Positions 8,257 through 51,692 of a stretch of DNA of 63,609 nucleotides are shown in pieces. Both the position numbers and the translations under genes were made by a program. Source of the DNA: a virus (lineage: Duplodnaviria > Caudoviricetes); the IMG/VR virus record IMGVR_UViG_3300037461_000542, positions 1 through 63,609 of that record; one strand, given 5' to 3'. The notes under the pieces are model-generated. The model searched no databases, was not told the origin of the DNA, and saw nothing but the letters and a program-made list of their open reading frames with translations. Position 1 is the stretch's first letter. Each line of letters starts with the position of its first letter.

Positions 8257-8628
8257 ATGAAAACAGCTAAATATGTTCTTGCAGTTTTGCTTTTGGGTTT
8301 TGTGTGCATAGGCGCAATGTGTCAGCAACAGATCCTAACGCCGGATAAGATGACAGTTAAGCAAAGGGCTACGTTTGCAATGAACTTGTATTCCAATGCC
8401 TACGATAACTATCTGGCTCAGTTCGCTGCAACACCTCAACCTATTACTGGAGCTACGAAGGAATATTTTCAAGCTTACAAACAGATGATGGAAGTTGCGT
8501 ATCCTATCGTTACTACCTATAGTCAGATTGCTGTAATTGGTGGGACTCCATCTCCTGAACAGGAGCAGGCAATTTTAACCCTCATCTATCAGATGCAGGC
8601 TATTCTTATGAAAGGGATGGTGAAATAA
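8257..8628 (+). CDS. Putative lipoprotein / exported protein
   Basis: Signal MKTAKYVLAVLLLGFVCIGAM-C with a lipobox-like Cys and a helical body. Confidence 0.55.
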   Translation: MKTAKYVLAVLLLGFVCIGAMCQQQILTPDKMTVKQRATFAMNLYSNAYDNYLAQFAATPQPITGATKEYFQAYKQMMEVAYPIVTTYSQIAVIGGTPSPEQEQAILTLIYQMQAILMKGMVK

Positions 8629-8629
8629 T

Positions 8630-8815
8630 ATGGCTGCTGACGCGATTGTTGTTGCAGGAATTACCGCAGGTACTTCAATTATTATCCAGGGCATGCAGGC
8701 ATGGATTGAAATGGCGAGAGCCTTGGGGCAGACTGAGGCGGAGATTGATGCTGCTTTTGTTGCTGCTAAACTCAGGTTTGAATCGAAGACTCCCGATAAA
8801 TTGCCCAATGCGTGA
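8630..8815 (+). CDS. Small hydrophobic protein
   Basis: 61 aa with an N-terminal hydrophobic stretch; coupled to neighbours. Confidence 0.6.
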   Translation: MAADAIVVAGITAGTSIIIQGMQAWIEMARALGQTEAEIDAAFVAAKLRFESKTPDKLPNA

Positions 8816-8820
8816 GGTGT

Positions 8821-9021
8821 ATGATGGCAGAAACTAAGTTTGAAATTGTTTTGAATAAGTTGAAACAGCCTTCTACTATTAAGGGATTGCTTGGTATTGC
8901 CAGCATCGTTGCTCTTCGATTTGGGGTTACTCTTGATCTCACAGTGGAAGACTTGCAGACTATTGTAGAAAGCGCAGCGGCTCTTTATTTTAGCATCGCC
9001 ATTCTGTGGCAGAAGTCGTAG
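8821..9021 (+). CDS. Putative holin-like membrane protein
   Basis: KLKQPSTIKGLLGIASIVAL...AAALYFSIAILW: two hydrophobic segments. RBS GAGGTG. Confidence 0.5.
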   Translation: MMAETKFEIVLNKLKQPSTIKGLLGIASIVALRFGVTLDLTVEDLQTIVESAAALYFSIAILWQKS

Positions 9022-9023
9022 CT

Positions 9024-9374
9024 ATGGAAAACAAACACGGTCTCGTCGCTCATCCCACATTTTGGAAGTTGAGTGATGAATACATCTCAAAACAGTACGA
9101 GGGGTGAGGCCCAGGTAAATTTGGGGACAAGGTTGTTCCAGATACTTTCTACGGTCTTTCTGTTAAGGTGGCTTGACAGATCCACGATCATGATTATGAG
9201 GTGGGTCGCACCTTACAGGAAAAGATGGAAGCTGATTGTAGATTGTTGCACAATCTCTACATAATGATTCAGAGTGAACCCACCAATTGGCTTACATCTC
9301 TTCGTTATGAAAGGGCAATTAATTATTACGAAATGGTTTCGATATTTGGACGGGGAGCGTTCTTCAAAGATTAG
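9024..9374 (+). CDS. Phospholipase A2-like protein with two in-frame UGA codons (candidate selenoprotein, Sec28 and Sec51)
   Basis: MENKHGLVAHPTFWKLSDEYISKQYEG[U]GPGKFGDKVVPDTFYGLSVKVA[U]QIHDHDYEVGRTLQEKMEADCRLLHNL...AINYYEMVSIFGRGAFFKD. TGA at 9105 and 9174 lie at the Cys positions of the G-C-G-P-G and A-C-x-x-H-D-x-x-Y motifs. The frame fills the gap between the holin-like gene and terL. Confidence 0.8.
9120..9142 (+). promoter_or_regulatory. SECIS-like hairpin 1
   Basis: TTT(G)GGGACA-AGGT-TGTTCCAGA. The AGGU loop begins after a 22-nt spacer from UGA 9105-9107. Confidence 0.6.
9197..9215 (+). promoter_or_regulatory. SECIS-like hairpin 2
   Basis: TGAGGTG-GGTCG-CACCTTA, a 7-bp stem. The GGUCG loop begins after a 27-nt spacer from UGA 9174-9176. 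Confidence 0.65.
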
Positions 9375-9382
9375 GGGGATCT

Positions 9383-10993
9383 ATGGGAGTTACTGAACGT
9401 CAGATTTTAGAATTGACTTCAGCGTTAGATTGTTTCACATGGCTTACTCAGAACAATATAACGCTGTCTCATGGCCCCTGGAGATTGAAGGGACATGAAT
9501 ATCAACTGGCTTGGTTACAGGAAACTGCAAAGGAACAATGTTTTATTAAAGGCGCTCAGACAGGATGCACTGAAGCATTGGTTCTTCGAACCTTACATGG
9601 TATGATCTACCAGCATTATCCGCAGGGAGCTGTATATCTATTCCCAACACGAGATGATGTCAAGGATTTCTCGAAGGCACGGTTTGATCCTCTGATTGCT
9701 GGCAACGGTTGTATTTCCAACCATGTTCAAAACACAGATGCAACAAACATTAAACAGATAGGTCGTGCGTTTCTTTATCTTCGTGGTGCTCGTATCACAA
9801 AGAATATTTCAGGAGCCAAGAAGAGTTCATCTCAATTGAAATCAATTCCAGTAGATCGTGTGGTCTTCGACGAACGAGATGAGATGGACGATTCGATGGT
9901 AGAGTTGGCGAGGGAACGTGTATCCCATTCGGATGTTCAAGAAATTATCTCCCTTGGTACACCTACTATTCCAGACTATGGAATTGATAAGATGTATCAG
10001 GAATCGGATCAACGAGTATGGATGATTCGGTGTGAGAAGTGCAACAAGTTTACTTGTCTTGAACTGGAATTTCCAACCTGTATAATGCGAAGACCCGATG
10101 GAGAAGCGTATCGTGGATGTGTTCATTGTCAGGAAGAGATATTTCCACACAACGGACAATGGGTTCCACAGTATCCTGGAAGAGAAAAGGTAGGTTGGTG
10201 GATTTCACAACTGAATTCATTGTACGTTAAACCTGGGTACATTCTCGATCTATACGAAGACCCACCCAATGGGGATCTCTCAGAAGTAATGAACTCCAAG
10301 TTGGGTCGAGCCTACATACCAGCAGAAAATAGATTGACCTCTGCTGAAGTCTACGCTTGTTGTGGTAAGGATCCAATGTTAATGAAGCACGATGGTCCTT
10401 GTGGTATGGGTGTTGATGTTGGGAGGGAACTCCACGTTACGATTGGATACAGAACCAGTAGAAGAAATGTTAAGATAATCTACATAGGTCGAGTATCTTC
10501 TTTTACAGACCTACACGATCTCGGTAAAAGGTATGGAGTTAGGAGTTCTGTAATAGATCTGAAACCCGAGACAAGAAAGGTGAGGGACTTCCAAACTTCT
10601 GAACCATACTCGATTTTTGGGTGTGACTACGTAGAAACCAGAACTGGTATGACGGCGTGGGATGAGAAAGAACGGGTTATTAAATGCAACCGCACAGAGA
10701 TCTGCGATATGTCCCATGATCTTGTTACTGAACCGGGGAGATTGGAACTACCTCGTAGAAACACAGAAATTGATCAGTACGTGAGGGAGATGTGCAACAT
10801 CGCAAAGGTGTTGGAAGAAGATATGGACACGGGCAATCGTGTGTATCGCTACAAAAAATTAGGCCCGGATCACTATCGACACTCTACTAACTATTTATTG
10901 TTGGCTTGTGATAGAATAGGATCCGTCAACGATAGTAAACTAATTGGACTTTATTATGATCGCCGTAGACGGCGTAACTTTATGACTGCATAA
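9383..10993 (+). CDS. terL: Terminase large subunit, lambda GpA-like
   Basis: Walker A-like KGAQTGCTE, Walker B VVFDERDEM, coupling motif LGTPT, Zn site CEKC..CVHC, nuclease motifs GMGVDVG and DHYRHS. Confidence 0.9.
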   Translation: MGVTERQILELTSALDCFTWLTQNNITLSHGPWRLKGHEYQLAWLQETAKEQCFIKGAQTGCTEALVLRTLHGMIYQHYPQGAVYLFPTRDDVKDFSKARFDPLIAGNGCISNHVQNTDATNIKQIGRAFLYLRGARITKNISGAKKSSSQLKSIPVDRVVFDERDEMDDSMVELARERVSHSDVQEIISLGTPTIPDYGIDKMYQESDQRVWMIRCEKCNKFTCLELEFPTCIMRRPDGEAYRGCVHCQEEIFPHNGQWVPQYPGREKVGWWISQLNSLYVKPGYILDLYEDPPNGDLSEVMNSKLGRAYIPAENRLTSAEVYACCGKDPMLMKHDGPCGMGVDVGRELHVTIGYRTSRRNVKIIYIGRVSSFTDLHDLGKRYGVRSSVIDLKPETRKVRDFQTSEPYSIFGCDYVETRTGMTAWDEKERVIKCNRTEICDMSHDLVTEPGRLELPRRNTEIDQYVREMCNIAKVLEEDMDTGNRVYRYKKLGPDHYRHSTNYLLLACDRIGSVNDSKLIGLYYDRRRRRNFMTA

Positions 10994-11506: not shown

Positions 11507-13633
11507 ATGTTTGAGGGATTGATAAAATCTAAAAAACTGGACAAAGCCAAGGAATTATTTACCGAGGCTGTATCTGCTGATAGAACGTGGCAGAAAGAGG
11601 CGAGAGAAGATTTCGCATTCAGGGATGGATTCCAGTGGACCTCCAATGAACGTAGATTGTTGCAAGATGAGATGCGTCCATGTCTTACCTTCAATCTAAC
11701 TAAATCAAGTATTGATCTTATTATGGGTATGAACGAAGATAATAGGATTGAATACAAATGCGGACCAGTTGATCGGACAGATGGATTTCTTTGTGATGTC
11801 CTCAACGATCTTGCATATTGGTTGCAGCAGAACAATAGATTTGGTGATGAAGAAGACGATGCTCTTGAGTCGGCAGCTACGGCTGGTCGTGGTTATGTAG
11901 CCATTGATTTTGCCCCAGATCCTAAAAGGTTCGGGGACATTATCATGCAGGAAATCAACGTACCTGTTCATGAAGTTCACTTCGATCCCTCTGCAAGAAA
12001 ACGAGACTTGTCCGATGCATCCTACATTTTTTGGGATCGTTGGCTTTCTGTAGCAGATTTTCGAGTAAAGTATCCCAAGATCAAGAAGAAACAGATAGAG
12101 GATTTTATAGCTGGATCGGCAGGATCGAAGGATCCTTGGAGTGCGGCTACTCCATTTGATGCTGATGCCATGAATCGTGATACTCGTGGTGTTGACTATG
12201 CATCAGACACGACAGACTATAACACTCCCCTTGATTCTGAATTCTATGATCGCAGTAAGAATATGATTCGTGTTGTTCAGATGGAATACTGGGATGTGTT
12301 TAAACGTAACTACGTATTTTATCCCAAGGACAAACAGTGGATAGAGATTACTGGAATTCCCCTGAAAGAAGCTGAAGCTGCTTTCATGGAAGATTTTCCT
12401 GGTCAGCAGTTCATGGTTGAGACCATGATGGATAAGAAGGTTAAGTGGATGCAGTTCACTGGGGATGACATCCTCTTTGAAGGTGATTCTCCACTTCCGT
12501 ATCCTGGGTTCTCGATCTGTCCTACATTTGTTTACGCAGATGCTTCGAAGCGTACAGCGAATCATTATGGGATTGTCAGACTGATTAAAGATCCTCAACG
12601 AGAGGTCAACAAGAGATGGTCGCAAGCGTTGCATCTCTTGAACCAACAGGCTCAGCCGGGGGTCTACGCAGAAACAGATGCCTTTGTAGATGTGAAACAG
12701 GCTGAAGCATCGTTGAAAGAAGCTGGTAGCATCACTTGGGTAAATCCAGGTGCTATGAATAACAAAATTAAAGAGCGAACGGTGCCTCGATTTCCAGATG
12801 CTCCCATGCAGATGGAGCAGTTTTCTCAGGAAATCATTAAAAAGATTACAGGTATCAACCCAGATCTTTTGGGGCAAGACAGAGGGCGGCAAGAACCGGG
12901 AGTGGTTATCCGACTCCGACAACAGCAGGGCTTGGTGTTGCTTAAGCCCCTCTTTAAATCGTTCAACAATATGAAGCGCGATCTGTTCATGAGACAACTC
13001 GCTGTCATTATGGAATATATGCCTGATTCCCAGATTCTCCGTATTCTTGGAGAGACTGATCGTTATGCAATAGATCCCAACACTGGTATTATTACCGACA
13101 AGATGACTGAGAGACAGGCTAACATTCGAGAGATCAAGAACATCCAGTATAATGTTATAGCTGAAGAGAGTGCTGGCAATATGACGAAACGGATGTTGGA
13201 GCTTACAGCTCTTCTTGAAATGCAGAAGGGCGGGTTCCCTGTCGAACCGTCTCAGATCATCGAGAAGATGTCCATACCTGACCAGGATAAGCAACGATGG
13301 ATGCAGTATATCCAGAGTCAGCAGGAATCCCAGGCTCAGGCTGCTCAGGAACAGTTCCAGGCACAGATGCAGATTGAAGCTGGTAAATTGTCGGCTCAGG
13401 ATAAAGCTACTGTCCTGAACTTCCTGGCGCAAATTACGAAGGTAAAGCAACAGCAGCGTAAAGACGACATTAAGGTGGCGCAGACTGCTGCAACATTGAA
13501 CCAGCAAGATCGACAGATGAGAGCTGGTCTCATGACAGACATTTTGAAGCTGGCTAAAGAATACAGTTCTGAACAATTGGCTGCTACACAATCGGAAGGA
13601 GAAGTTAATGGGGGCGCTCAAGCCGAACAATGA
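11507..13633 (+). CDS. Portal protein (P22-like)
   Basis: EAREDFAFRDGFQW...RPCLTFNL, YGIVRLIKDPQREVNKRWS, Gln-rich coiled C-terminus; located after terL. Confidence 0.9.
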   Translation: MFEGLIKSKKLDKAKELFTEAVSADRTWQKEAREDFAFRDGFQWTSNERRLLQDEMRPCLTFNLTKSSIDLIMGMNEDNRIEYKCGPVDRTDGFLCDVLNDLAYWLQQNNRFGDEEDDALESAATAGRGYVAIDFAPDPKRFGDIIMQEINVPVHEVHFDPSARKRDLSDASYIFWDRWLSVADFRVKYPKIKKKQIEDFIAGSAGSKDPWSAATPFDADAMNRDTRGVDYASDTTDYNTPLDSEFYDRSKNMIRVVQMEYWDVFKRNYVFYPKDKQWIEITGIPLKEAEAAFMEDFPGQQFMVETMMDKKVKWMQFTGDDILFEGDSPLPYPGFSICPTFVYADASKRTANHYGIVRLIKDPQREVNKRWSQALHLLNQQAQPGVYAETDAFVDVKQAEASLKEAGSITWVNPGAMNNKIKERTVPRFPDAPMQMEQFSQEIIKKITGINPDLLGQDRGRQEPGVVIRLRQQQGLVLLKPLFKSFNNMKRDLFMRQLAVIMEYMPDSQILRILGETDRYAIDPNTGIITDKMTERQANIREIKNIQYNVIAEESAGNMTKRMLELTALLEMQKGGFPVEPSQIIEKMSIPDQDKQRWMQYIQSQQESQAQAAQEQFQAQMQIEAGKLSAQDKATVLNFLAQITKVKQQQRKDDIKVAQTAATLNQQDRQMRAGLMTDILKLAKEYSSEQLAATQSEGEVNGGAQAEQ

Positions 13634-29592: not shown

Positions 29593-32500
29593 ATGGGCAA
29601 ATACTTGCAGTATGGTATGGCGATTGCGAAGGGCGGGGAAGAGGCGAAGGCTGCGCAGAAGATCTCCGACGAAGAGTATGGTAAGTTGATGGAATCAGCA
29701 ACTTCAGATATTGCTGCTGAACTCGCTGCGTTGAAAAAAAATAAAGACGATACGGGTATTCTTGGCAAAGCCGCGAAGTGGGCTGGAGCTGCTCTATTCG
29801 ACACAGGTGCAGAGGACACTCCTGCTCCTACAATGGGGCAAACTCCAGAAGTAGTGGCTCAGTTAAAAACTCTTGCTGTGGAGAATGCAAGGGCAGAAAC
29901 AGAACGCCTCAAGATGGAGCAGCAGGTAAAGAACGAAGAAGCTGTAAAGGTTATGAAGGAATACTTCGTCTTGCCCGAAGCTTTGAAACCTTTGGCCGAT
30001 ACTGAAGTAGCTCGTGCTTTCATGGTTGGGCAAGCTCAGGATATGTACGGTCAGTTAGGGTATAAGCAGAAACAGTACGCCCTTAAAGATCAAGAGTTAC
30101 CACCTGAAGAGAAGACACGGTTGGAGAAACTGGGCAAGGTTCTGAACTACAAGTCCAACGATGAAGGGTTCCTGAACTTTGTAAAGAACAGCGCAGCAGA
30201 ACTCCTTGGTCAACAGGTTCAAACAGCGGTGGATCCCAATCATAATCCATATGTAACTGGAGCTGTGGCTGGTGCAGCTACCGCTGCTGGTACAGCCTAT
30301 CTTGGTCCTGGTGCCATCGCTACAGGTGCCTCCGCAGCAGGTGCAGCTACTCTTGCTGCCTCTGCTAACCGTACCCACATGATAGAAGCAGGACATGCGT
30401 TTGCAGATCTCAAGAAGTTGAAGCATGCCAATGGCAAATCTGTGACTGTAAAAGAAGCAGCCATTGCCTCCGAGTTGATAGGTGGAGCTGTCTCCCTCCT
30501 TGACACTGTTGGTCTCTCCGCACTCGCAAAGAGCGTACCAGTCCTTCGTAAGTTTGTGGGGGCGGACGCCATCGTTAAAAGCCCCACTGTTATGTCTGCT
30601 ATTCTGTCTACAGTTAAAAGAGTGGCTCATGGTACAGCAGCAGAAGCAAGTACTGAGGGTATGCAGGAGATTCCTGGTATTCTTGCGACAGCTATGCTCC
30701 AGGATAAAGATGTCTCAGATGCTATGATGGATCCTGAGAATGCAAGACAGATCGTTGAGGTCATGCAGAAAGTAGCTGCTGGTATGGGGGCACTCTCTTC
30801 TGCAGGTAACGTGAGATCTACGGTTCGTGATGCACGACAGATCATGTCTGAGCAACGTGCCAGAACTCACGATACTGTGGTCAATGCATTGAAAGAAGGG
30901 GTAGATCAACAGACAACTCCCAAGATCAATACTAAAGAGGAGCCGGAACCTTCGGTTCCTCCCAAGAAGAGAGTTCGTAAGCCGTCGCCAGCTCCAGAAC
31001 CCGTCGAGGCTTCATCTCCTCCCCCTACTCCTGAAGATAAGGTATCATCCGCCGGTTCTGTGGTGGATGAAAGTGTTGGTAAGGTAGCGGAAGACATTCC
31101 AAGGTTGAAGACTGGTTCCACGAAAGACAAGAAGACTGGAGAGACCCAGGATACCTTTATCAACATAGATCCGATCAGTACCCCCGGTGCTGTTGCGGAG
31201 AAACCGGATGGTTCGTTGACAGAGGTAACTCTTGCTCCTGAGAGTATGTCTCCCAAAACTAAGGTAGGTCTCCTCTTCGAAGACGAAGGGAATCCTCTCC
31301 CGTCTGTAGAATTTGAAGATGGTTCTCGACTCCATACTCCAAAGAGAGTATGGGCTGTAGCCAATGCTACGCCAGTTAAACTGGATTGGCTTACCCGTCC
31401 AGCACTCCTCACCAACGAGAATACGATCTACGAAGGACCGGCTGTTAACCCACCGTCCATTACGAGACCTATTATTGAGGATCTTGATTCTCTTGTTGAG
31501 AGTAGAAGGAAAGCAGAACAAGCAGTTACACAAGCTGGACTACGTGTTGCCCCATCCGATGAAGGTCCATCTGATATAAAAGATGTGGGGTTTGTCATCA
31601 CTGGTCCAGAAGGATCCCCCGTTGCTGGTCAGTTGGTATGGGTTTCTTCTAAACTCGTAGGTGAAAAGTTCAAAGGGGGCTACGCCTCCCTCGAAGACAG
31701 ACTTCGTGCCTCTATGGGAGAGAACTACGAGAAGGCCACTAAAGTACGAGAGGTGAAGGAAGAAGCGAAGGCCGAGAAAAAGAATGTACCACTATCCCCA
31801 GAAGAAACCTCTTTTCTTTCCCAGAAATACGTGCCTGCTCAGCAGAAAAGGGTTGTAAATTCGCTGGCTAACCAGGGCATGGAACGTACAGAGTTGGAAT
31901 CTATCGTGCAGGAAGCTGCTGTAGATGCTACTCGTGCAGTTCTCAAGGGAAAAGTACGGACTCCCAAAGCCCAGCAGAGAGCCTTCGCTCAAAGTTTGCG
32001 TGGTATAACCGCTAAGAAATATGAGGAATCTTTTGGGCAAGGCAGGCGTGGTCGTGAGGCCATGCGTAAAGCTGGCATAAAAGATGTATCCTATGAAGCC
32101 GCTGGTCTTGAGAATAAAGATGTAACTGGTGTTGGTGCCACAATGGAAGGTGCTGTCACTCAGGAGATGACAGGTGAACCTGTAGCAACTAAGGTGTCTC
32201 AAAATACCCCCATCAAGCAGGCCCAGCGTCGTGGTGAGTTTGTGGCCGAAGGCCAAAAGAAACCCCCTATCCGAACCAAGGTGTTCACGGAGGCCCAAAA
32301 AGCAGCGGAAGCTAAGAAGAGGGGTGTGGGTGTAGCTCCATCCAAAATGGGACCAACCATCCCTGCCAATATCCGTGCTATCCGTGCTCGTAAACAGGCA
32401 GTTGCCACTGTAACGCCAGTAGAACCCGTAGGATCGACGATCTCTCCAGAGCCTACCCTTGCTATGGCTGCTCCACAGATCGTGCAGCCAGTGCCTTCTG

Positions 32501-35500
32501 GTAAGGCCGCTATCAAGGCAGAAATCAAAAAAGAAGTGCAGGCTCGTGAAACTGAGAGACGTAACCGTGAATATGTGGCAGTACCGAAGAAAGATGTAGA
32601 CTCCCTAAAGGGAGTCACCACATCGTCGTACATTGGAGAGCTGCGTCGTAGCGACAAACTGGTAGTGCGGACGAATGGGGATGTGACCTTCTCCAAGTAC
32701 GCGCAAGCTGCGCCCGTTGCAAAGAAAGAAGGGGGTACAATCCTCCCCACAGATAAGGGAACCTACGTTGTAGCGAAGGATGCACAACCAAGGGTGATGT
32801 ATGATCTGAAGTTGCGACAGGAAGATGCAGCACAGCGAAGCGGTGAACGTAAACCAGTCAATGTTAAGGTGGAACCTATAGGTATGCCTGCCGGTACAGA
32901 TAGACCTATTGTTCTCGTTACACTCCAATCTGGTAGTAAGATCCCCTTTTACAAAAGCTGGAAAGGAACTTCCGGGAAAACTAAGGGTAACTGGTATCCT
33001 TTCTTTGGAATTGCTGAAAATGGATGGTTCATGAAGGGGGATACTACAGATCTTAATACTGGATATGGTAATCCTGAAATCAAAGCAGCGCAGGAGCACT
33101 TGAATTTTACTCTTAAAGGTGAACTTGGTCCAGAATTTAAGAAACAGATTGGAAGATCAGAAACAAATAAACTGATTGTTGGTAAAGAAAAACTTCTCGG
33201 TCATCCAGAAATCGGGCCAATAAGAGAGCAACTTAAAAAGAACAATGTACTTTTACTTGAACAGGCTGCTGTCCCCCAAAGCAAAACTACCACTGGAGCT
33301 ACCATGTTGGGAGAGCAGAATGCTGTTGCTCCGCTCAACGAGGAAGCCTCTAAATCCGTAGAAGAAACCGACAAGATGATGGTGGAAACACCTACCATCC
33401 CCGGTGTAGAGGATATTGCTCTGGTACCACAGTCTGCTACTGCACCCTCCATTCTCAACGTACCTTCTGTTAAAAGCGAAGCTTCTCCAGCGAGACCTGC
33501 TACTAAAGCCGAGAAGATGACGAGACCTCGGTATGGTGGGAAGATTGCAAAGAGTTTTGAAGGGGTTAAGCGAACCTTTCAGGATATAGTTTTTGAAACA
33601 GGGGTTAAGGGACCGGAGTTGGCGTCTCGTCTTATGACCTACGGTACGGATAACAATCTTCTTATCCTGAAGAAAGACGGAGATCCTATCCATACCGGGT
33701 ATAAAGGAATAATGCTCCGATCTTCTACCGATGATGTCATAAAGAACGCTTGGATTGTCCCTGTTGGGGACGATCAGTTTATTCTATTCAAACCCACACC
33801 TGAAACCTACCCAGATGGTACGAGTGGGTATGCAAAACCTGATGTTCTCTCTGTAGTCTCCGATGCATTGGATGCTACGGAGGGGGTGGCTGCTCCGTCT
33901 ATGACACCTGTGTTGAAGACTGCTCCAAAGGTTGGTGGTACTGTCTCCTCTCCTGGATCTGTAGAGGAGCAAGTGAGGGCAGGTAAGGTAGCTTTGGAAG
34001 AGGCGAAGGAAAGGGCAAAGACCACTCCTAAACTGAAGCCAACTACTGTGAGGAAGAAGAAGGTTACGATGGGAGATCCCTCCATTCAGATGCAATCCTC
34101 CAACCCTCACGCCAAGGTATCTGATGCTAACCTTGGAGACAAGATCCAAGTCATAGGTGCTCCACAATCGTATCAGGCTGTTCTCGTAGATCCTGCTACC
34201 TCTGGTGTCCTTGGTATCCACTCTACCTCCAAGGTTGGTGATGCTGGATTTAAAGAGGTGGCGAAAGCTGCACAGGCACAATCGAAGGGCGTAGCTACAG
34301 CCCACCGTGTTGTCATCACAATGTCTGGAGCAGAGGGGCAAGCTGCGTCTCAGGATCATGTGGTTCTTAAAGTTGTGGATCGTGGATTCAACGGTGCCAA
34401 GTCTGTACGTCTCATGGATAGTTTGCAGAATGAACGTGGGAGTACATTGGTTATCCCCCATCTTGCTAACGGTAGTATGAAATTGATGGGTGGATTGAAG
34501 TCTGCCTATACTTGGGCTGAGAAAGCGTTGTCTGTTGAACAACCCTGGATCTCAAAGAACATGCACGAGATAGGGTTCGCCATCAAGAACTTCTTTGGAC
34601 GGCGTGATGTTGAAGAGAAGATTGGTATGCAGGTAGCATTGGATCTCCAGACCGACATTAGAAATACGTTTGGAGATAAGCCCTCCCGTCAGAATTATGT
34701 GGACATCATCCTTGCTGCTGAGAATCCTGCTACTATGGCCGACTTTTCTCCTGAGTACAAGGCTCAGATCTCCCCCATTGCAGCTAAGATGAGAAAATAC
34801 TTTGATGATTCTCAGGCTGAGATGCTGGCTCGTGGATTGAATCTCGACTGGAAGACCAACAAACTGGGACAGTTGCAGTCTAAGTTAGAAGACGAAGCTG
34901 ATCCAGTAAAGCAGCAGAGAATCGTGGAATCCATAGAGATGGTGAAAGCTTCAGAGTTTGTTCACATTCCCTACAAGATGATGTTTGGTTCTAAGATGGA
35001 TCGTATGATTCAAGAAGTAGATCCAGTTATCCGTAAGAAGAGGTATGCTGAATTACAGTCTATGTTAGCTCATCAACGTAGGGGTACTACCATTGCCTCT
35101 ATGTTGAATCGTAAGAACAAAGATGGAGAGTACGTTATTGATCGTGCTGAGTTGACTCCTGTTAATGTCATCATGTCCTACGCCTACAACAAAGGGCATG
35201 ACATGGCGATGCTCGACATCAAGGATGCTATCAAGCAGTATAAAGATCTTTACCGTACAACTCGTGGCAAGCCCAAGGATGATAAACATGGGTATACCTG
35301 GATTAAGATCAACACTCCTAAGCTTGCTATCCTTCGTACTATGCTATCGCCTGAAGATAATAAGGCTAAGAAGAATCTTTGGATTCGTCAGGATGTGGTG
35401 CGTGCTATCTCAGAAGCATTGGGATACAATGAAAGACAGACCTCTTGGGATAAATTCATGTCTATCTCTAAGATGTCTGCTTTCTGGAACCCTGTATTTC

Positions 35501-36894
35501 TTCCCATGTACAATACTATGCAAGCGTTACGATCATGGACCATTAATCCCATGAAACCTATTCGTACATGGCAAGCATTCTCTAAGGCCGTAGACGATAT
35601 TGGTGGGATGCGATCCATTCTGTCTCGTCAACATAAACCATACTCAGAGGATTATCTTGAAGCTCTGAGAAATGGACTGGCTTCCAAACCATTCTCCAAT
35701 CCATTCCAAGGATGGAGGGATTTTGCGAAAGCTATCTCTGATGGGACCAATGGATCTTGGTATACAGATGCTATCCGTGCATTTAAACAAGAGTTGGATC
35801 ATTCCTCTCCTCTTGCAAAATATACGTTGGCTTTGCCTGTAATGAAATCTTTATATCAGGCATCATGGCATATTTCGTGGCAGGTTGACGAACTGTTCCG
35901 CATGGCATCATACAATTATCTGAGGGACAGAGGACACAGCCCTCGTGAAGCAGCACAGGTTTCAGCCAACCTTCAGGGTGACTACGCTTCTATACCTCCC
36001 AAGAGTAGGAAGATTCTTAATAAGATCTTCTTCACTCCTACCTTTAAGATAGCTACTCTAAAACTTTATGGAGCATTGATGCATGGTGCTTTAAAAAGTG
36101 GTAAGATGATGCTACTTCATGGTGGTGATTGGAAGAAGCACACTTCTAAACCAGAGAGACGCTATGCTCGTGCAGCAATGGGTGTTATCATGGTTAACAT
36201 GGCCTTCGATCTTGCATTGTTGGGTCTTGGTTTTCAGCGGGATGAGTGGGGTCGTCGTTATGTGAAACGTATTGTGGATGAAACTGGTAAGAAGAAAGAT
36301 TTTTACATTACCTTTGCTTCATCTGAGAACGTAGTGCAACGCTACACTGAACGTATCCAGAAGGCTTTCTTTGATCCTTCTGTGTCCAACCCCTGGTCTG
36401 AATTTGTAAGGGTTAATAAGTGGGAGTTGCATCCTGTATGGCGTAATGCCTACTCTGCTTTTATAGGAGAAGGCGATGAGGGAAGAATCTGGAGTACTTC
36501 AGAGAGTGGTGCTTCGAAGTTTGCAAAGAGTATGTGGTATTTCACATCGAAGACTTTCAACTTGTTGGATGCAATTCAAAGTCGTACAGAATTTGCAACC
36601 AATAAAGTAGAACGTGAACGTGTGCAAAAGACTTGGATCAGAGAGTACGGCAAGGGGCTGGGTGCCATCTACGGTGGGCTGGAAACCGTATTCGGATACG
36701 GCTACCTTACAGACCCAGTTGAAAAACGCAAGGTGTTGAAGTTGAAGGCTGTGCAGAAAGAGTTCATACGAGAAGCGTATGACTCTGTAAATAAAACAGG
36801 TAAGGTGGATCCTACCCTCAAAGAGAACTTTCGGAATAGGATGAAGAGTATTACCAAACACTATGACGAAATGAAGAAGGGGGTGGTCCGATGA
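29593..36894 (+). CDS. Very large (2433 aa) internal virion / polyvalent-type protein
   Basis: EASTEGMQEI-type N-terminal helical region, long low-complexity linkers, helical C-terminal domain; last large gene of the virion module. Confidence 0.7.
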   Translation: MGKYLQYGMAIAKGGEEAKAAQKISDEEYGKLMESATSDIAAELAALKKNKDDTGILGKAAKWAGAALFDTGAEDTPAPTMGQTPEVVAQLKTLAVENARAETERLKMEQQVKNEEAVKVMKEYFVLPEALKPLADTEVARAFMVGQAQDMYGQLGYKQKQYALKDQELPPEEKTRLEKLGKVLNYKSNDEGFLNFVKNSAAELLGQQVQTAVDPNHNPYVTGAVAGAATAAGTAYLGPGAIATGASAAGAATLAASANRTHMIEAGHAFADLKKLKHANGKSVTVKEAAIASELIGGAVSLLDTVGLSALAKSVPVLRKFVGADAIVKSPTVMSAILSTVKRVAHGTAAEASTEGMQEIPGILATAMLQDKDVSDAMMDPENARQIVEVMQKVAAGMGALSSAGNVRSTVRDARQIMSEQRARTHDTVVNALKEGVDQQTTPKINTKEEPEPSVPPKKRVRKPSPAPEPVEASSPPPTPEDKVSSAGSVVDESVGKVAEDIPRLKTGSTKDKKTGETQDTFINIDPISTPGAVAEKPDGSLTEVTLAPESMSPKTKVGLLFEDEGNPLPSVEFEDGSRLHTPKRVWAVANATPVKLDWLTRPALLTNENTIYEGPAVNPPSITRPIIEDLDSLVESRRKAEQAVTQAGLRVAPSDEGPSDIKDVGFVITGPEGSPVAGQLVWVSSKLVGEKFKGGYASLEDRLRASMGENYEKATKVREVKEEAKAEKKNVPLSPEETSFLSQKYVPAQQKRVVNSLANQGMERTELESIVQEAAVDATRAVLKGKVRTPKAQQRAFAQSLRGITAKKYEESFGQGRRGREAMRKAGIKDVSYEAAGLENKDVTGVGATMEGAVTQEMTGEPVATKVSQNTPIKQAQRRGEFVAEGQKKPPIRTKVFTEAQKAAEAKKRGVGVAPSKMGPTIPANIRAIRARKQAVATVTPVEPVGSTISPEPTLAMAAPQIVQPVPSGKAAIKAEIKKEVQARETERRNREYVAVPKKDVDSLKGVTTSSYIGELRRSDKLVVRTNGDVTFSKYAQAAPVAKKEGGTILPTDKGTYVVAKDAQPRVMYDLKLRQEDAAQRSGERKPVNVKVEPIGMPAGTDRPIVLVTLQSGSKIPFYKSWKGTSGKTKGNWYPFFGIAENGWFMKGDTTDLNTGYGNPEIKAAQEHLNFTLKGELGPEFKKQIGRSETNKLIVGKEKLLGHPEIGPIREQLKKNNVLLLEQAAVPQSKTTTGATMLGEQNAVAPLNEEASKSVEETDKMMVETPTIPGVEDIALVPQSATAPSILNVPSVKSEASPARPATKAEKMTRPRYGGKIAKSFEGVKRTFQDIVFETGVKGPELASRLMTYGTDNNLLILKKDGDPIHTGYKGIMLRSSTDDVIKNAWIVPVGDDQFILFKPTPETYPDGTSGYAKPDVLSVVSDALDATEGVAAPSMTPVLKTAPKVGGTVSSPGSVEEQVRAGKVALEEAKERAKTTPKLKPTTVRKKKVTMGDPSIQMQSSNPHAKVSDANLGDKIQVIGAPQSYQAVLVDPATSGVLGIHSTSKVGDAGFKEVAKAAQAQSKGVATAHRVVITMSGAEGQAASQDHVVLKVVDRGFNGAKSVRLMDSLQNERGSTLVIPHLANGSMKLMGGLKSAYTWAEKALSVEQPWISKNMHEIGFAIKNFFGRRDVEEKIGMQVALDLQTDIRNTFGDKPSRQNYVDIILAAENPATMADFSPEYKAQISPIAAKMRKYFDDSQAEMLARGLNLDWKTNKLGQLQSKLEDEADPVKQQRIVESIEMVKASEFVHIPYKMMFGSKMDRMIQEVDPVIRKKRYAELQSMLAHQRRGTTIASMLNRKNKDGEYVIDRAELTPVNVIMSYAYNKGHDMAMLDIKDAIKQYKDLYRTTRGKPKDDKHGYTWIKINTPKLAILRTMLSPEDNKAKKNLWIRQDVVRAISEALGYNERQTSWDKFMSISKMSAFWNPVFLPMYNTMQALRSWTINPMKPIRTWQAFSKAVDDIGGMRSILSRQHKPYSEDYLEALRNGLASKPFSNPFQGWRDFAKAISDGTNGSWYTDAIRAFKQELDHSSPLAKYTLALPVMKSLYQASWHISWQVDELFRMASYNYLRDRGHSPREAAQVSANLQGDYASIPPKSRKILNKIFFTPTFKIATLKLYGALMHGALKSGKMMLLHGGDWKKHTSKPERRYARAAMGVIMVNMAFDLALLGLGFQRDEWGRRYVKRIVDETGKKKDFYITFASSENVVQRYTERIQKAFFDPSVSNPWSEFVRVNKWELHPVWRNAYSAFIGEGDEGRIWSTSESGASKFAKSMWYFTSKTFNLLDAIQSRTEFATNKVERERVQKTWIREYGKGLGAIYGGLETVFGYGYLTDPVEKRKVLKLKAVQKEFIREAYDSVNKTGKVDPTLKENFRNRMKSITKHYDEMKKGVVR

Positions 36895-49472: not shown

Positions 49473-49748
49473 GGTGCCTCCTATGTGCTTGAAGTTGTAG
49501 TGTAAATGTATGATGCAGACGTACCTATATCCCATTGATGTGGGTGGAAAGCTGAGTACTGACTCCAATCAAATGTGTTTTTGTTGATTTTTCGATTTCA
49601 ATGAAAGCCTTCCCCCCGAAATCACAGATAATATGAGCACCTCCTCCACCAAAAACATGCCCTCCCTGTATGTTCTTGAGATTTATAGCAATTGCTATGT
49701 ACCCATCACTCTCCTCTACAATTCTTTGAAGGTGCCATACCTGCGTTT

Positions 49749-51692
49749 TCATACCGGGCTTAGATTTGAGTAACGATTCCCACATTCGCATTCACCTCCT
49801 AATTTTACGTTCCAATCTACCCCAAAATAGTTGGAGATGTAGGTATCAAGGTTATCCCCTACGTAATTACACAGTTTTATTAGGGATTGCAATTCGTTCT
49901 CCACATAGTCGAACACAAGAGAATCATGAACTGTAAGGATCAGCTTGCTTCTCATTCTCCTCTGTACAAGGGCACGACGAAGCACAACGCAAGCAAGAGG
50001 CAATATATCACCACCAGAATTACCCTGTATAGGCCAGTTCTTAATGGTGTTTTCTGGGTATACGTAAGTACCTGTTTTCTTATCGTACTCAGACTTATGA
50101 AAAGTAAAGCGACGACCAGAAAATATTTCAAGTTTACCTCCTTGCGACCACACCCTTGAGATCAAGGATTGGTTATGATCCCTAAGTCCATGATATTTTT
50201 CAAAGAATGCATCTATAATCTCCATCCATTTTCGTTTGGAGAATGGGGGCATCTTAGGATCAAGGAAAAAACCCCAGTAGGAGCCACCGTAGATCATGCG
50301 GAAGTTGAATACCTTGGCGTGTGTTCTATTTTGGTAGCTCTCTGGATCTGACTTGCTCTCGAACTTTAACCCCATGAGGTCTCGACAAGCAGCTATATGC
50401 TGATCAACCCCCGTGTTTATCTCGTGGATCATCACCTGATCTTGTGATAGGAACGCTGCATCCCTCCACTCTATCTGCGACAAGTCCCATTGCAGGAGTC
50501 CATCGTGGTGGGGTACTACAATATCTTTGGTCACTTCATATAAGTTCATGACGTTGGGGCCAGAGGAGGAGAGACGACCTGTAGTTGTGAAGGTGTTGTT
50601 GAATGTGGTGTGAACACACCCATCTGAGGCGATCTTGTTGAGGATTCCAGTATCCTCTTTCTTTCCCACCAGAGTTTTCATGATGGCTACGTGATCAGCC
50701 AACTCCAGGAGTTTAATCTTAATCTCCTTCGCCTCCTTAGTCTTTGCCTTCAAGAGAGAGATCGTTGTCTTATCGGTTTTGAAAAACCCTTTCTTCTTAT
50801 ACTCAGTTCTCGGCAACGGTTCAAACAATCGTGGGAAGTTCACCTCTTTCTTAAATGTCTTCTCGTAGTACTTCGTTTCAGGTTTAGATTTGTACGATCT
50901 TGTTACCCATTCCTCCCAAGAAATATCACAAGTACCACCATAAAGACAAGCGCTAAGTTGGTCATTTGACTCAAGATTTATTCTTTCATCTCCAAAGATT
51001 TCCTTCAATTCTTTTTCAAGAAGTACTACTTTACTTCTACTTTGTTCGTAGATTTCTCTCGCTTTTTCCACATCAATCTTCAATCCCATCATCTCCATAT
51101 CTACAAGAGAGAAGAGAAACTCATTCTGTAATTCTATAACCTTAAGAATTTGTAAACCATCCACCTCTTTCCATTGAGAGCGATACACTTCCTCTGTCAG
51201 ATTCACATCCTGGGTAGCATACTCATCCAGTACATCAAACGGAATATCCTCTGTGTGTACACCTGCATCCCAGTATTCCTTTGCCGATCCCAGTTTAGCA
51301 CCAAGTCCACGACGAGCAGCCACTTCGTCGAGATTGTAGGACAGCGTATGATCCTGCCCATGAATAAGATAGTCTGCTACTTGCGTACACCACAACTTCT
51401 TTCCTTCAAAGTTTATGCCACCACAGTATTTAGCTACGATAAGATCGTGCTTCAAGTTGTGTCCTACTATAAGATCAGCCTCGTTGACAGAACTTTGAAA
51501 CTCTTTCCATGAATCTATGGGTGCTGGAGTTTCCACACTTATATTCTTGTGATCAAACCATAGTGTACCCATCCTATCTTTCTCGTAGTGTTTATCCCCT
51601 ATCGTGTAAGTAAGACAGGACAGTACAAAGTCAGGATCCCACGGCTTGAACACACTTTCTCTATGCTCTGTGTCGAAAACCAAAGTCCTCAT
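49749..51692 (-). CDS. polA: DNA polymerase family A with 3'-5' exonuclease
   Basis: Exo motifs FDTE, GHNLKHD, YATQD; TGRLSS; motif A DLSQIEWR, motif B RTHAKVFNFRMIYG, motif C VHDS. Confidence 0.95.
   Translation of the reverse strand: MRTLVFDTEHRESVFKPWDPDFVLSCLTYTIGDKHYEKDRMGTLWFDHKNISVETPAPIDSWKEFQSSVNEADLIVGHNLKHDLIVAKYCGGINFEGKKLWCTQVADYLIHGQDHTLSYNLDEVAARRGLGAKLGSAKEYWDAGVHTEDIPFDVLDEYATQDVNLTEEVYRSQWKEVDGLQILKVIELQNEFLFSLVDMEMMGLKIDVEKAREIYEQSRSKVVLLEKELKEIFGDERINLESNDQLSACLYGGTCDISWEEWVTRSYKSKPETKYYEKTFKKEVNFPRLFEPLPRTEYKKKGFFKTDKTTISLLKAKTKEAKEIKIKLLELADHVAIMKTLVGKKEDTGILNKIASDGCVHTTFNNTFTTTGRLSSSGPNVMNLYEVTKDIVVPHHDGLLQWDLSQIEWRDAAFLSQDQVMIHEINTGVDQHIAACRDLMGLKFESKSDPESYQNRTHAKVFNFRMIYGGSYWGFFLDPKMPPFSKRKWMEIIDAFFEKYHGLRDHNQSLISRVWSQGGKLEIFSGRRFTFHKSEYDKKTGTYVYPENTIKNWPIQGNSGGDILPLACVVLRRALVQRRMRSKLILTVHDSLVFDYVENELQSLIKLCNYVGDNLDTYISNYFGVDWNVKLGGECECGNRYSNLSPV

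Follow-up and report, generated by a model that had tools for sequence, protein, structure and literature searches.

Two in-frame TGA codons at a conserved cysteine pair in a phage phospholipase A2-like gene: candidate sites of selenocysteine insertion

Why should a phage gene carry two TGA codons in frame, each at a position where most of its relatives carry cysteine? The question is raised by a phospholipase A2 (PLA2)-like open reading frame (ORF) in IMG/VR virus record IMGVR_UViG_3300037461_000542, a complete tailed-phage genome of 63,609 bp with direct terminal repeats, which was analysed at its full length and is referred to here as the window. The frame begins with an ATG 2 nt past the stop of the preceding small ORF and holds exactly two internal stops, both TGA, with no frameshift and no further stop. 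A preliminary description of this DNA took the two codons as selenocysteine (Sec, one-letter code U), at residues 28 and 51, and proposed that they map to the Cys29-Cys45 disulfide of group I/II secreted PLA2s (sPLA2s), with a diselenide in its place. Its coordinates and motifs for both TGAs are correct, as retranslation of 9024-9371 with TGA read as U confirms, and the segments so defined align with homologues throughout (27 residues before the first TGA, 22 between the two and 65 after the second). On balance, we lean towards the view that both UGAs are read as Sec by SelB of the host, and that the two residues form a diselenide which replaces the structural disulfide of the family.

A phospholipase A2-like family and its cysteine pair

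A word-index search with the window protein found 11 relatives, and a profile search of 1.84 billion representatives gave 1487 matches at E<=0.001, 676 of them at E<=1e-10. The window protein by itself matches no Pfam family at E<=10 and lies below the membership thresholds of PF07087 and PF09056; its only match in PHROG is weak, to an entry of unknown function. The link to a superfamily is made at the level of profiles. A profile of 121 members (A2) matches the solved microbial sPLA2s 1faz (2.9e-8), 4aup (3.3e-6), 7ygk (4.9e-6) and 8k1w (5.3e-5). Among the same 121 members, and at E<=0.1 only, 54 match DUF1353 (PF07087), 44 match Phospholip_A2_3 (PF09056) and 14 match Phospholip_A2_4 (PF08398, the parvovirus type).

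Predicted structures point to the same enzymes. Two AlphaFold (AF2) models, built from 12 and from 121 sequences, have predicted local distance difference test (pLDDT) values of 85.0 and 91.6, respectively, and are helical, with the HD motif opening helix 48-60. For both models, the five top Foldseek matches in the PDB are chains of 4aup, 1faz, 8k1w and 7ygk, with template modelling (TM) scores of 0.50-0.61 and probabilities of 0.98-1.00, and no other entry comes close. Among viral proteins, the best fold match (TM 0.79) is to a 'phospholipase A2 domain protein' of Vibrio phage 1.097.O, which has 32.7% identity. The PLA2-type fold claimed in the preliminary description is borne out by these matches of profile A2 and of both models. 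The group I/II frame into which it had been put is not: no group I/II structure is among the significant Foldseek matches, the sole other PLA2 in the Foldseek listing is from a plant (2wg7/2wg8/2wg9, E 2.7-3.7, probability 0.13-0.16), and Phospholip_A2_1 is absent from the 22 Pfam families matched by the 121 members. In group I/II sPLA2s, the Cys of an x-C-G-x-G loop (Cys29) is paired with a Cys three residues before the catalytic His (Cys45). On direct reading, U28 and U51 occupy the corresponding motif positions, and the numbering carries over to them only as an analogy, at the level of motifs.

On the evidence of profiles and models, the window protein is a member of the microbial secreted-PLA2/DUF1353 superfamily with a PLA2-like fold, and it may hydrolyse phospholipids. 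According to the available part of PMC11525133, the DUF1353 protein TtaP is an experimentally verified PLA2 and a distant relative of the group XIV enzymes, and the Streptomyces and Tuber sPLA2s have four Cys, all in two disulfides, which TtaP lacks.

The family alignment has 158 rows, namely the window protein (read with Cys at the two TGAs and counted as such) and 157 database proteins. Besides the HD motif and Asp71 (Table 1), the conserved residues include Asn77 (157 rows) and Tyr101 (150 rows). The two TGAs coincide with the columns that hold Cys in 143 and 145 of the 158 rows, which goes beyond coincidence. The counterpart of column 51 is the Cys of T-A-C-A-R-H-D in 1faz, and its equivalent in 4aup and 7ygk. 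How closely are columns 28 and 51 tied to each other? The residue pairs are C/C in 142 rows, A/A in 6 and M/G in 2, with V/A, G/F, A/F and H/C in 1 row each; W/W and C/W also occur once each, in proteins P0001 and P0002, and 2 truncated rows have Cys at 51. With the truncated two set aside, the remaining 156 rows split 142/1/1/12 into those with Cys at both columns, at one or the other, and at neither (Fisher 6e-16, uncorrected for phylogeny). By mutual information (MI) with average product correction (APC) the pair is 6th of 6328, and it comes first, at 0.85, when MI is normalised to the lower of the two column entropies. This pattern fits structural disulfide partners that are lost together, and the six A/A rows show that the pair is dispensable jointly, consistent with a structural bridge. 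Of the earlier proposal, the pairing of the two columns survives, with strong covariation and with column 51 aligned to a disulfide Cys of the group XIII/XIV enzymes, whereas the homology to group I/II does not.

The two rows with Trp deserve a separate comment. Of the database proteins, P0001 and P0002 are most closely related to the window protein (68% and 59% identity, respectively), and no other row has Trp at column 28 or 51. To judge from these protein rows, their Trp residues are probably TGA codons that were called with genetic code 4.

TGA codons in other phages and the hairpins behind them

Recurrence of the TGAs was surveyed with degenerate DNA patterns run over the IMG/VR viral contigs, and chance matches were discarded by translation (11 of 11 for TGA at 51 alone, and 8 of 18 and 8 of 19 in scans of viral contigs). 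A scan of metagenome contigs, whose pattern admitted Cys or Trp but not TGA at column 51, gave L012 only, on the same contig as L004. Besides the window, ten distinct TGA-bearing phage genes were found. Writing the states of columns 28 and 51 in that order, with U for TGA and C for Cys, six are U/U (L037, the same as L039; L041; L043; L045; L047; and L050), three are U/C (L013, the same as L015 and L016; L014; and L102) and one is C/U (L077). Every TGA-bearing gene has an ATG 26-39 codons before its first TGA, and an N-terminal part that is homologous within its clade. TGA at both sites is the commonest state among the TGA forms, and the sites are not strictly linked. The co-occurrence that the preliminary description had asked about is seen in the U/U forms of other phages, but does not extend to the mixed U/C and C/U forms, in which an Se-S bridge (selenylsulfide) would have to work too. 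L102 represents a further lineage, with the gene on the minus strand (2039-2434) and the context U-G-P-K-G-F-G-Y-L-I-P-D; it has a hairpin at equal distance from the TGA, but the loop, CUUGA, is without an early G.

A tree of 33 distinct sequences (7 U/U, 2 U/C, 1 C/U and 23 C/C; L102 was left out) joins the window weakly (85/74) to a well-supported clade of four U/U sequences, the C/U form and a C/C form, L091. L043 and L045 have no resolved position, and the U/C pair falls in a separate clade. The well-supported branches require at least three changes of Cys/TGA state.

Are the interrupted genes maintained? In five within-clade pairs of TGA-bearing genes, the ratio of nonsynonymous to synonymous differences per site (pN/pS) is 0.03-0.46 in all three segments, at pS of 0.18-0.85. 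Before, between and after the TGAs, respectively, the ratios are 0.03, 0.05 and 0.17 for L041/L077; 0.11, 0.10 and 0.04 for L047/L050; 0.23, 0.17 and 0.46 for L037/L047; and 0.22, 0.19 and 0.41 for L013/L014. Three distant pairs that include the window give 0.65-1.04 for the N-terminal segment, values near 1 that arise because this segment barely aligns. The TGA-bearing genes are under purifying selection in all three segments and are not pseudogenes. Moreover, the 22-codon middle segment contains the motifs G-P-G and V-P-D and lacks a usable start codon, so that it can be produced only by read-through of the first UGA.

Elsewhere in the phage genome, UGA is an ordinary stop. The 82 greedy non-overlapping ORFs of the window end in TAA (43), TGA (23) or TAG (16); ORFs under genetic code 11 span 94% of the window, and those terminated by TGA include the portal gene and a 2433-residue ORF (29593-36894) whose end overlaps the next start. 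There is no other convincing TGA-interrupted gene in the ~60 kb of coding sequence in the window, and no tRNA gene of any kind, hence no suppressor tRNA. Coverage by code-11 ORFs is 0.80-0.95 at the TGA-form loci and 0.82-0.92 at Cys-form control loci. Any further frames in the window that would require read-through of TGA are confined to one stretch, 49481-49815, which has no code-11 ORF of at least 50 residues; only frames with 1-3 TGAs are open there, they look like noise, and the stretch is probably an intergenic or regulatory region.

If the two UGAs encode Sec, each should be followed by a Sec insertion sequence (SECIS). For the bacterial element (bSECIS), the available text of PMC13188914 gives a consensus loop of 3-9 nt with a G in its first two bases, an upper stem of 4-16 bp, a distance of 16-37 nt from UGA to loop, and a minimum free energy (MFE) of <= -7.5 kcal/mol. 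In a strict scan that applied all of these together, site 28 was passed by 8 of 9 U-forms and 6 of 24 Cys-forms (Fisher 0.0015), and site 51 by 5 of 8 U-forms and 4 of 25 Cys-forms (Fisher 0.02); the sequences are related, so that the p-values are optimistic. The mean local MFE at site 28 is -9.8 kcal/mol behind TGA (n=9) and -7.2 kcal/mol behind Cys codons (n=23; Mann-Whitney 0.021), and at site 51 the corresponding means are -8.1 (n=8) and -4.2 kcal/mol (n=24; Mann-Whitney 0.00018). SECIS-like hairpins are much commoner after TGA than after Cys codons.

At site 28, the stem GGGGAY/GUYCCN starts 15 nt past the UGA and closes loops such as GGUU, GGCU, UGGAUU and AGGU. Gly34 is GGG and Val38 is GTY in each of the nine distinct U-forms, while other Gly codons in these sequences vary freely. 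Fully 52 of the 54 cells of the stem are paired (96.3%), as against at most 70% with the partner strand slid. Nine Cys-forms in the same register have G-D-x-x-[VI]-P (a comparison that left out L078, whose register differs, and in which the pattern missed L077); GGG occurs in 2 of them and the full six-pair stem in 1. At site 51, the U-form hairpins have 5-8 bp and a loop 22-27 nt past the UGA, despite a peptide that differs between lineages (loops GGUCG, GUG, CGGG, CGGU, GGUC and AGUUG). The window passes the strict scan at this site, with -9.4 kcal/mol including the outer pairs, and a fraction of only 0.001 of synonymous recodings fold equally well. Two further cases fit a function of the hairpin: L091, which is C/C within the U/U clade, has lost GGG, and L077, in which the Cys at 28 is very recent, retains the hairpin.

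A compact PLA2-like subfamily of 87-95 residues was also found, in L053 (minus strand, 737-1000), L054 (minus strand, 1826-2212) and L055 (5440-5727; the same gene as in L056). Its members read C-x-x-x-P-D ... U-U-x-[IV]-H-D-E-D-Y ... U, and so have one ordinary Cys and three TGAs, the third about 24 residues after the others. The three-TGA protein has no homologue by word-index search, and the subfamily profile matches 4aup (4.2e-6), 8k1w, 7ygk and 1faz, as well as profile A2 at 97.9% probability; opposite its ordinary Cys and its second and third U, the solved microbial sPLA2s have Cys. The adjacent UGA pair would be unusual for SelB-dependent decoding. These alignments suggest that phage PLA2-like genes more generally write disulfide Cys as TGA.

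Competing readings of the two UGAs

How might the two UGAs give rise to a working enzyme? In most relatives, the Cys of the G-C-G-P-G loop would be bonded to the Cys three residues before the catalytic His, a bond that would tether this loop to the catalytic helix. Here the two Cys codons appear as UGA, each with a candidate hairpin behind it in the coding region. Host SelB with Sec-tRNA(Sec) would bind the hairpins, selenocysteine would be inserted at 28 and 51, and the two selenols would join in a diselenide instead of the disulfide. Reduction of a diselenide or a selenylsulfide is much more difficult than that of a disulfide, and the replacement bond would be far more resistant to reduction. 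The product would be a small enzyme made in the cytoplasm, with a His54/Asp71 dyad and the HD motif. We infer the Sec insertion, the Se-Se bond and its benefit in a reducing setting. The rationale of the preliminary description, an enzyme that folds in the reducing cytoplasm of an anaerobe, is plausible, given that direct reading finds no evident signal peptide and that the four DNA runs containing the window stretch are labelled wetland metagenome, although these runs are possibly the source of the window and are not independent of it. By analogy, the enzyme may act during entry, as does the PLA2 of parvovirus VP1, or during lysis.

Several results weigh against this proposal. No tRNA-Sec, selA, selB or selD was found in the phage window, and the Sec machinery would have to be that of the host. 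A scan of bacterial genome contigs with the TGA-form pattern gave 9 stretches, all 9 by chance, and no TGA-bearing prophage; in one bacterial phylum, 7 of 401 genomes matched the family, none with internal stops. Two SelB-dependent events only 23 codons apart are expected to be inefficient. The U-forms are not independent of one another, with 4 of the 7 U/U sequences in one clade, and the U/C and C/U forms point in part to independent gain and loss of TGA at the two sites, which the preliminary description had listed as evidence against a bridge.

The hairpins are also open to several objections. The site-28 stem has no double-sided compensatory change: three pairs are invariant, three vary one-sidedly, and the shuffle control does not discriminate. 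Conserved residues, G-D and V-P, set the sequence of half the stem. Considering that the stem is nearly invariant and half dictated by amino acids, the evidence at site 28 is one of codon choice and not of covariation. The bSECIS model is passed there by some Cys-forms too (the 6 of 24 given above), while the window itself fails the strict scan at this site, with -7.1 kcal/mol on nt 13-42 and a bulged G three pairs below the loop; a fraction of 0.565 of synonymous recodings fold as well as the window hairpin, and plain folding z-scores are unsupportive. At site 51, 3 of the 8 U-forms (L045, L047 and L050) fail the strict scan. Finally, an Rfam search found no SECIS family, only chance matches to snoRNAs.

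Perhaps Sec is inserted at both UGAs but forms no permanent bridge, serving instead as a redox switch, with the lipase held inactive until its selenols are oxidised on release from the cell, or as a redox-active or metal site. In nearly every known selenoprotein Sec takes part in redox chemistry, according to the available text of PMC13188914 and PMC13326102; the mixed U/C and C/U forms imply that a single Sec is already useful, and the absence of an evident signal sequence implies synthesis in a reducing compartment. It is difficult to see, however, why a pair needed for catalysis should be missing from the A/A, M/G, V/A, G/F and A/F rows, all of which keep the HD motif and the fold, and a DUF1353 PLA2 that lacks these Cys is active (PMC11525133, available part). 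Two residues alone would also make a poor metal site. We regard a Sec pair without a lasting bridge as unlikely.

A second alternative does without selenium altogether. The UGAs could be leaky stops, read rarely by a near-cognate tRNA (Cys or Trp) and perhaps aided by the hairpins, which would act as a throttle on a membrane-damaging enzyme. Such stops would arise most easily at a Cys column, where TGY to TGA is a single change and misreading as Cys still yields active protein; the weak site-28 hairpin of the window, the lack of Sec machinery in the phage and the calling of these columns as Trp in P0001 (W/W) and P0002 (C/W) are all compatible with this idea. Against a simple leak, however, stand hairpins with bSECIS spacing (21-27 nt) and a G-G or G-U loop start that are enriched after TGA relative to Cys codons. 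The TGAs, moreover, keep to the pair of partner columns in four lineages or more and, in the second subfamily, to columns equivalent to Cys, and Trp stands at these columns in no rows of the 158 but P0001 and P0002. We consider leaky termination improbable.

Two stops in a 116-codon frame, in a protein that alone has no Pfam match, might also suggest a decaying pseudogene or three unrelated short ORFs. That reading was rejected on pN/pS, since TGA-bearing pairs of high synonymous divergence have ratios well under 1 in each of the three segments; in addition, TGA occupies the identical two columns in several diverged phages, and the frame has no frameshift or other stop and aligns over its full length at up to 68% identity (P0001). 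We judge decay to be very improbable. An assembly error is opposed by an independently assembled contig of sequencing run X2, possibly the source sample, which spans 8600-9567 with 0 differences from the window. Another X2 contig, of 153 nt, matches window 9161-9208 with 7 differences and then runs into unlike sequence that still reads V-V-P-D-T-M-W-G, so that a second family member is present in that sample.

Least credible of all is a reassignment of TGA to a standard amino acid in the phage or its host (Trp under code 4, as apparently used in calling P0001, or Gly under code 25, which would give G-G-G-P-G), an explanation that was rejected because TGA is a frequent terminal stop here (23 of 82 ORFs, including the portal and the 2433-residue ORF) with no other convincing interrupted gene and no suppressor tRNA, and because Gly and Trp are nearly absent from columns 28 and 51 in the family.

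Genomic context, known systems and implications

The PLA2-like gene lies directly upstream of the terminase large subunit gene (Table 1). Immediately before it are three small ORFs (8257-9021; 123, 61 and ~66 residues) with no PHROG or family match; by eye, one has a lipoprotein-like hydrophobic N-terminus and two appear to be membrane-associated, and together with the PLA2-like gene they might form a lysis-type cassette. Contigs from the RNA runs X5, X6 and X7 span only 8600-8805 and 9605-9800, that is, regions outside the PLA2-like gene. In the 7 matching genomes of the 401 from one bacterial phylum (L094-L101, in G399, G263, G028, G284 and others), the PLA2-like domain lies inside open frames of 420-2427 residues without internal stops, and it may be fused there to large proteins of the phage-tail or toxin-like kind.

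Table 1. Positions in the window of the PLA2-like gene, its elements and neighbouring genes
Feature	Position	Strand	Remarks
PLA2-like (DUF1353 / group XIV-like) ORF	9024..9374	+	116 residues if both TGAs are read through; TAG stop 9372-9374
In-frame TGA, residue 28	9105..9107	+	U28 in E-G-U-G-P-G-K; G-U-G-P-G loop; Cys in 143/158 family rows
Hairpin candidate behind first TGA	9119..9143	+	Stem GGGGAC/GUUCC with outer extension and bulged G; loop AGGU 22 nt past UGA; borderline
In-frame TGA, residue 51	9174..9176	+	U51 in V-A-U-Q-I-H-D, 3 residues ahead of H54; Cys in 145/158 rows
His54-Asp55, HD motif	9183..9188	+	Invariant, 158/158 rows
Hairpin behind second TGA	9197..9215	+	7-bp stem; loop GGUCG 27 nt past UGA; agrees with published bSECIS model
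Asp71, candidate second member of catalytic His/Asp dyad	9234..9236	+	D in 152/158 rows, N in 6/158; dyad concept from the available part of PMC11525133
Terminase large subunit	9383..10993	+	Context; directly downstream of PLA2-like gene
Portal protein	11507..13633	+	Context

How does the window protein compare with enzymes already known? It resembles the group XIV/XIII sPLA2s (Streptomyces violaceoruber 1FAZ/1LWB, Tuber borchii TbSP1 4AUP, 7YGK and 8K1W) in its all-helical fold and in the motifs P-D...C-x-x-H-D...D...Y-Y. Those enzymes, however, are secreted, have four Cys in two disulfides (PMC11525133, in the part available) and have no Sec, whereas the phage protein lacks an evident signal peptide, has an upstream G-C-G-P-G loop and retains one conserved pair only. 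With TtaP and DUF1353 (PF07087) it shares a size of ~125 residues, links to prophages and the His/Asp dyad, again from the available part of PMC11525133; unlike TtaP, which has no disulfide Cys at all, it has the pair, encoded as TGA. Among proteins of isolated phages, the closest is the one of Vibrio phage 1.097.O._10N.286.49.B3 described above ('phospholipase A2 domain protein'); its frame was uninterrupted in the match, and its annotation is that of an ordinary protein. The PLA2 of the parvovirus and densovirus VP1 unique region (PF08398) is likewise virus-encoded, has Y-x-G-x-G and H-D-x-x-Y motifs and gives many weak fold matches, but it is part of a capsid protein of viruses that infect animals and lacks both the Cys pair and Sec, so that its role in membrane penetration serves as an analogy only.

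Among selenoproteins, a precedent for two bonded Sec residues is SelL, a eukaryotic protein said to have been described by Shchedrina et al. in 2007, which reportedly has a diselenide in a UxxU redox motif. There the two residues lie three apart in a thioredoxin-like motif, as compared with 23 here in the place of a structural disulfide. The arrangement of the phage gene otherwise resembles that of the bacterial Sec/Cys families, with an in-frame UGA at the Cys of homologues and a candidate hairpin 16-37 nt downstream that has a G in its first two loop bases (PMC13188914, available text). The known bacterial families, however, place Sec at redox-active sites of cellular enzymes, while here a phage gene would place two Sec at the structural-bridge partners of a hydrolase.

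No phage selenoprotein, PLA2 selenoprotein or structural diselenide in a hydrolase was found in the literature searched; the wording 'viral selenoprotein' occurred there for animal viruses only, and phrases for a phage selenoprotein were absent. The main texts of a 2026 review of the prokaryotic selenoproteome (PMC13188914) and of BSepDB (PMC13326102), which covers 111 families, mention no phage, phospholipase or diselenide, and that of PMC13326102 does not mention DUF1353; the supplementary family lists, of which that of PMC13326102 could name the family, were outside the scope of this search.

We would give an even chance to a broader proposal, namely that tailed phages encode genuine selenoproteins, and that in this widespread phage PLA2 family the disulfide partners turned from Cys to Sec more than once, at one or both positions, each with its own SECIS in the coding region. 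The result would be a natural structural selenylsulfide or diselenide by which the enzyme is held together where disulfides cannot survive. If so, no selenoprotein family of phages and no PLA2 selenoprotein would precede it, nor would any natural use of Sec for the stability of a bond rather than for redox catalysis, and it would be the natural counterpart of the replacement of disulfide by diselenide that protein chemists have so far achieved only through synthesis. Such genes are truncated or missed by standard gene callers, or are called under code 4, for which P0001 and P0002 are the likely examples. Phages would then join the users of the 21st amino acid by borrowing the Sec machinery of the host, and a phage gene that depends on Sec would mark the host range, because the host must carry selABCD.

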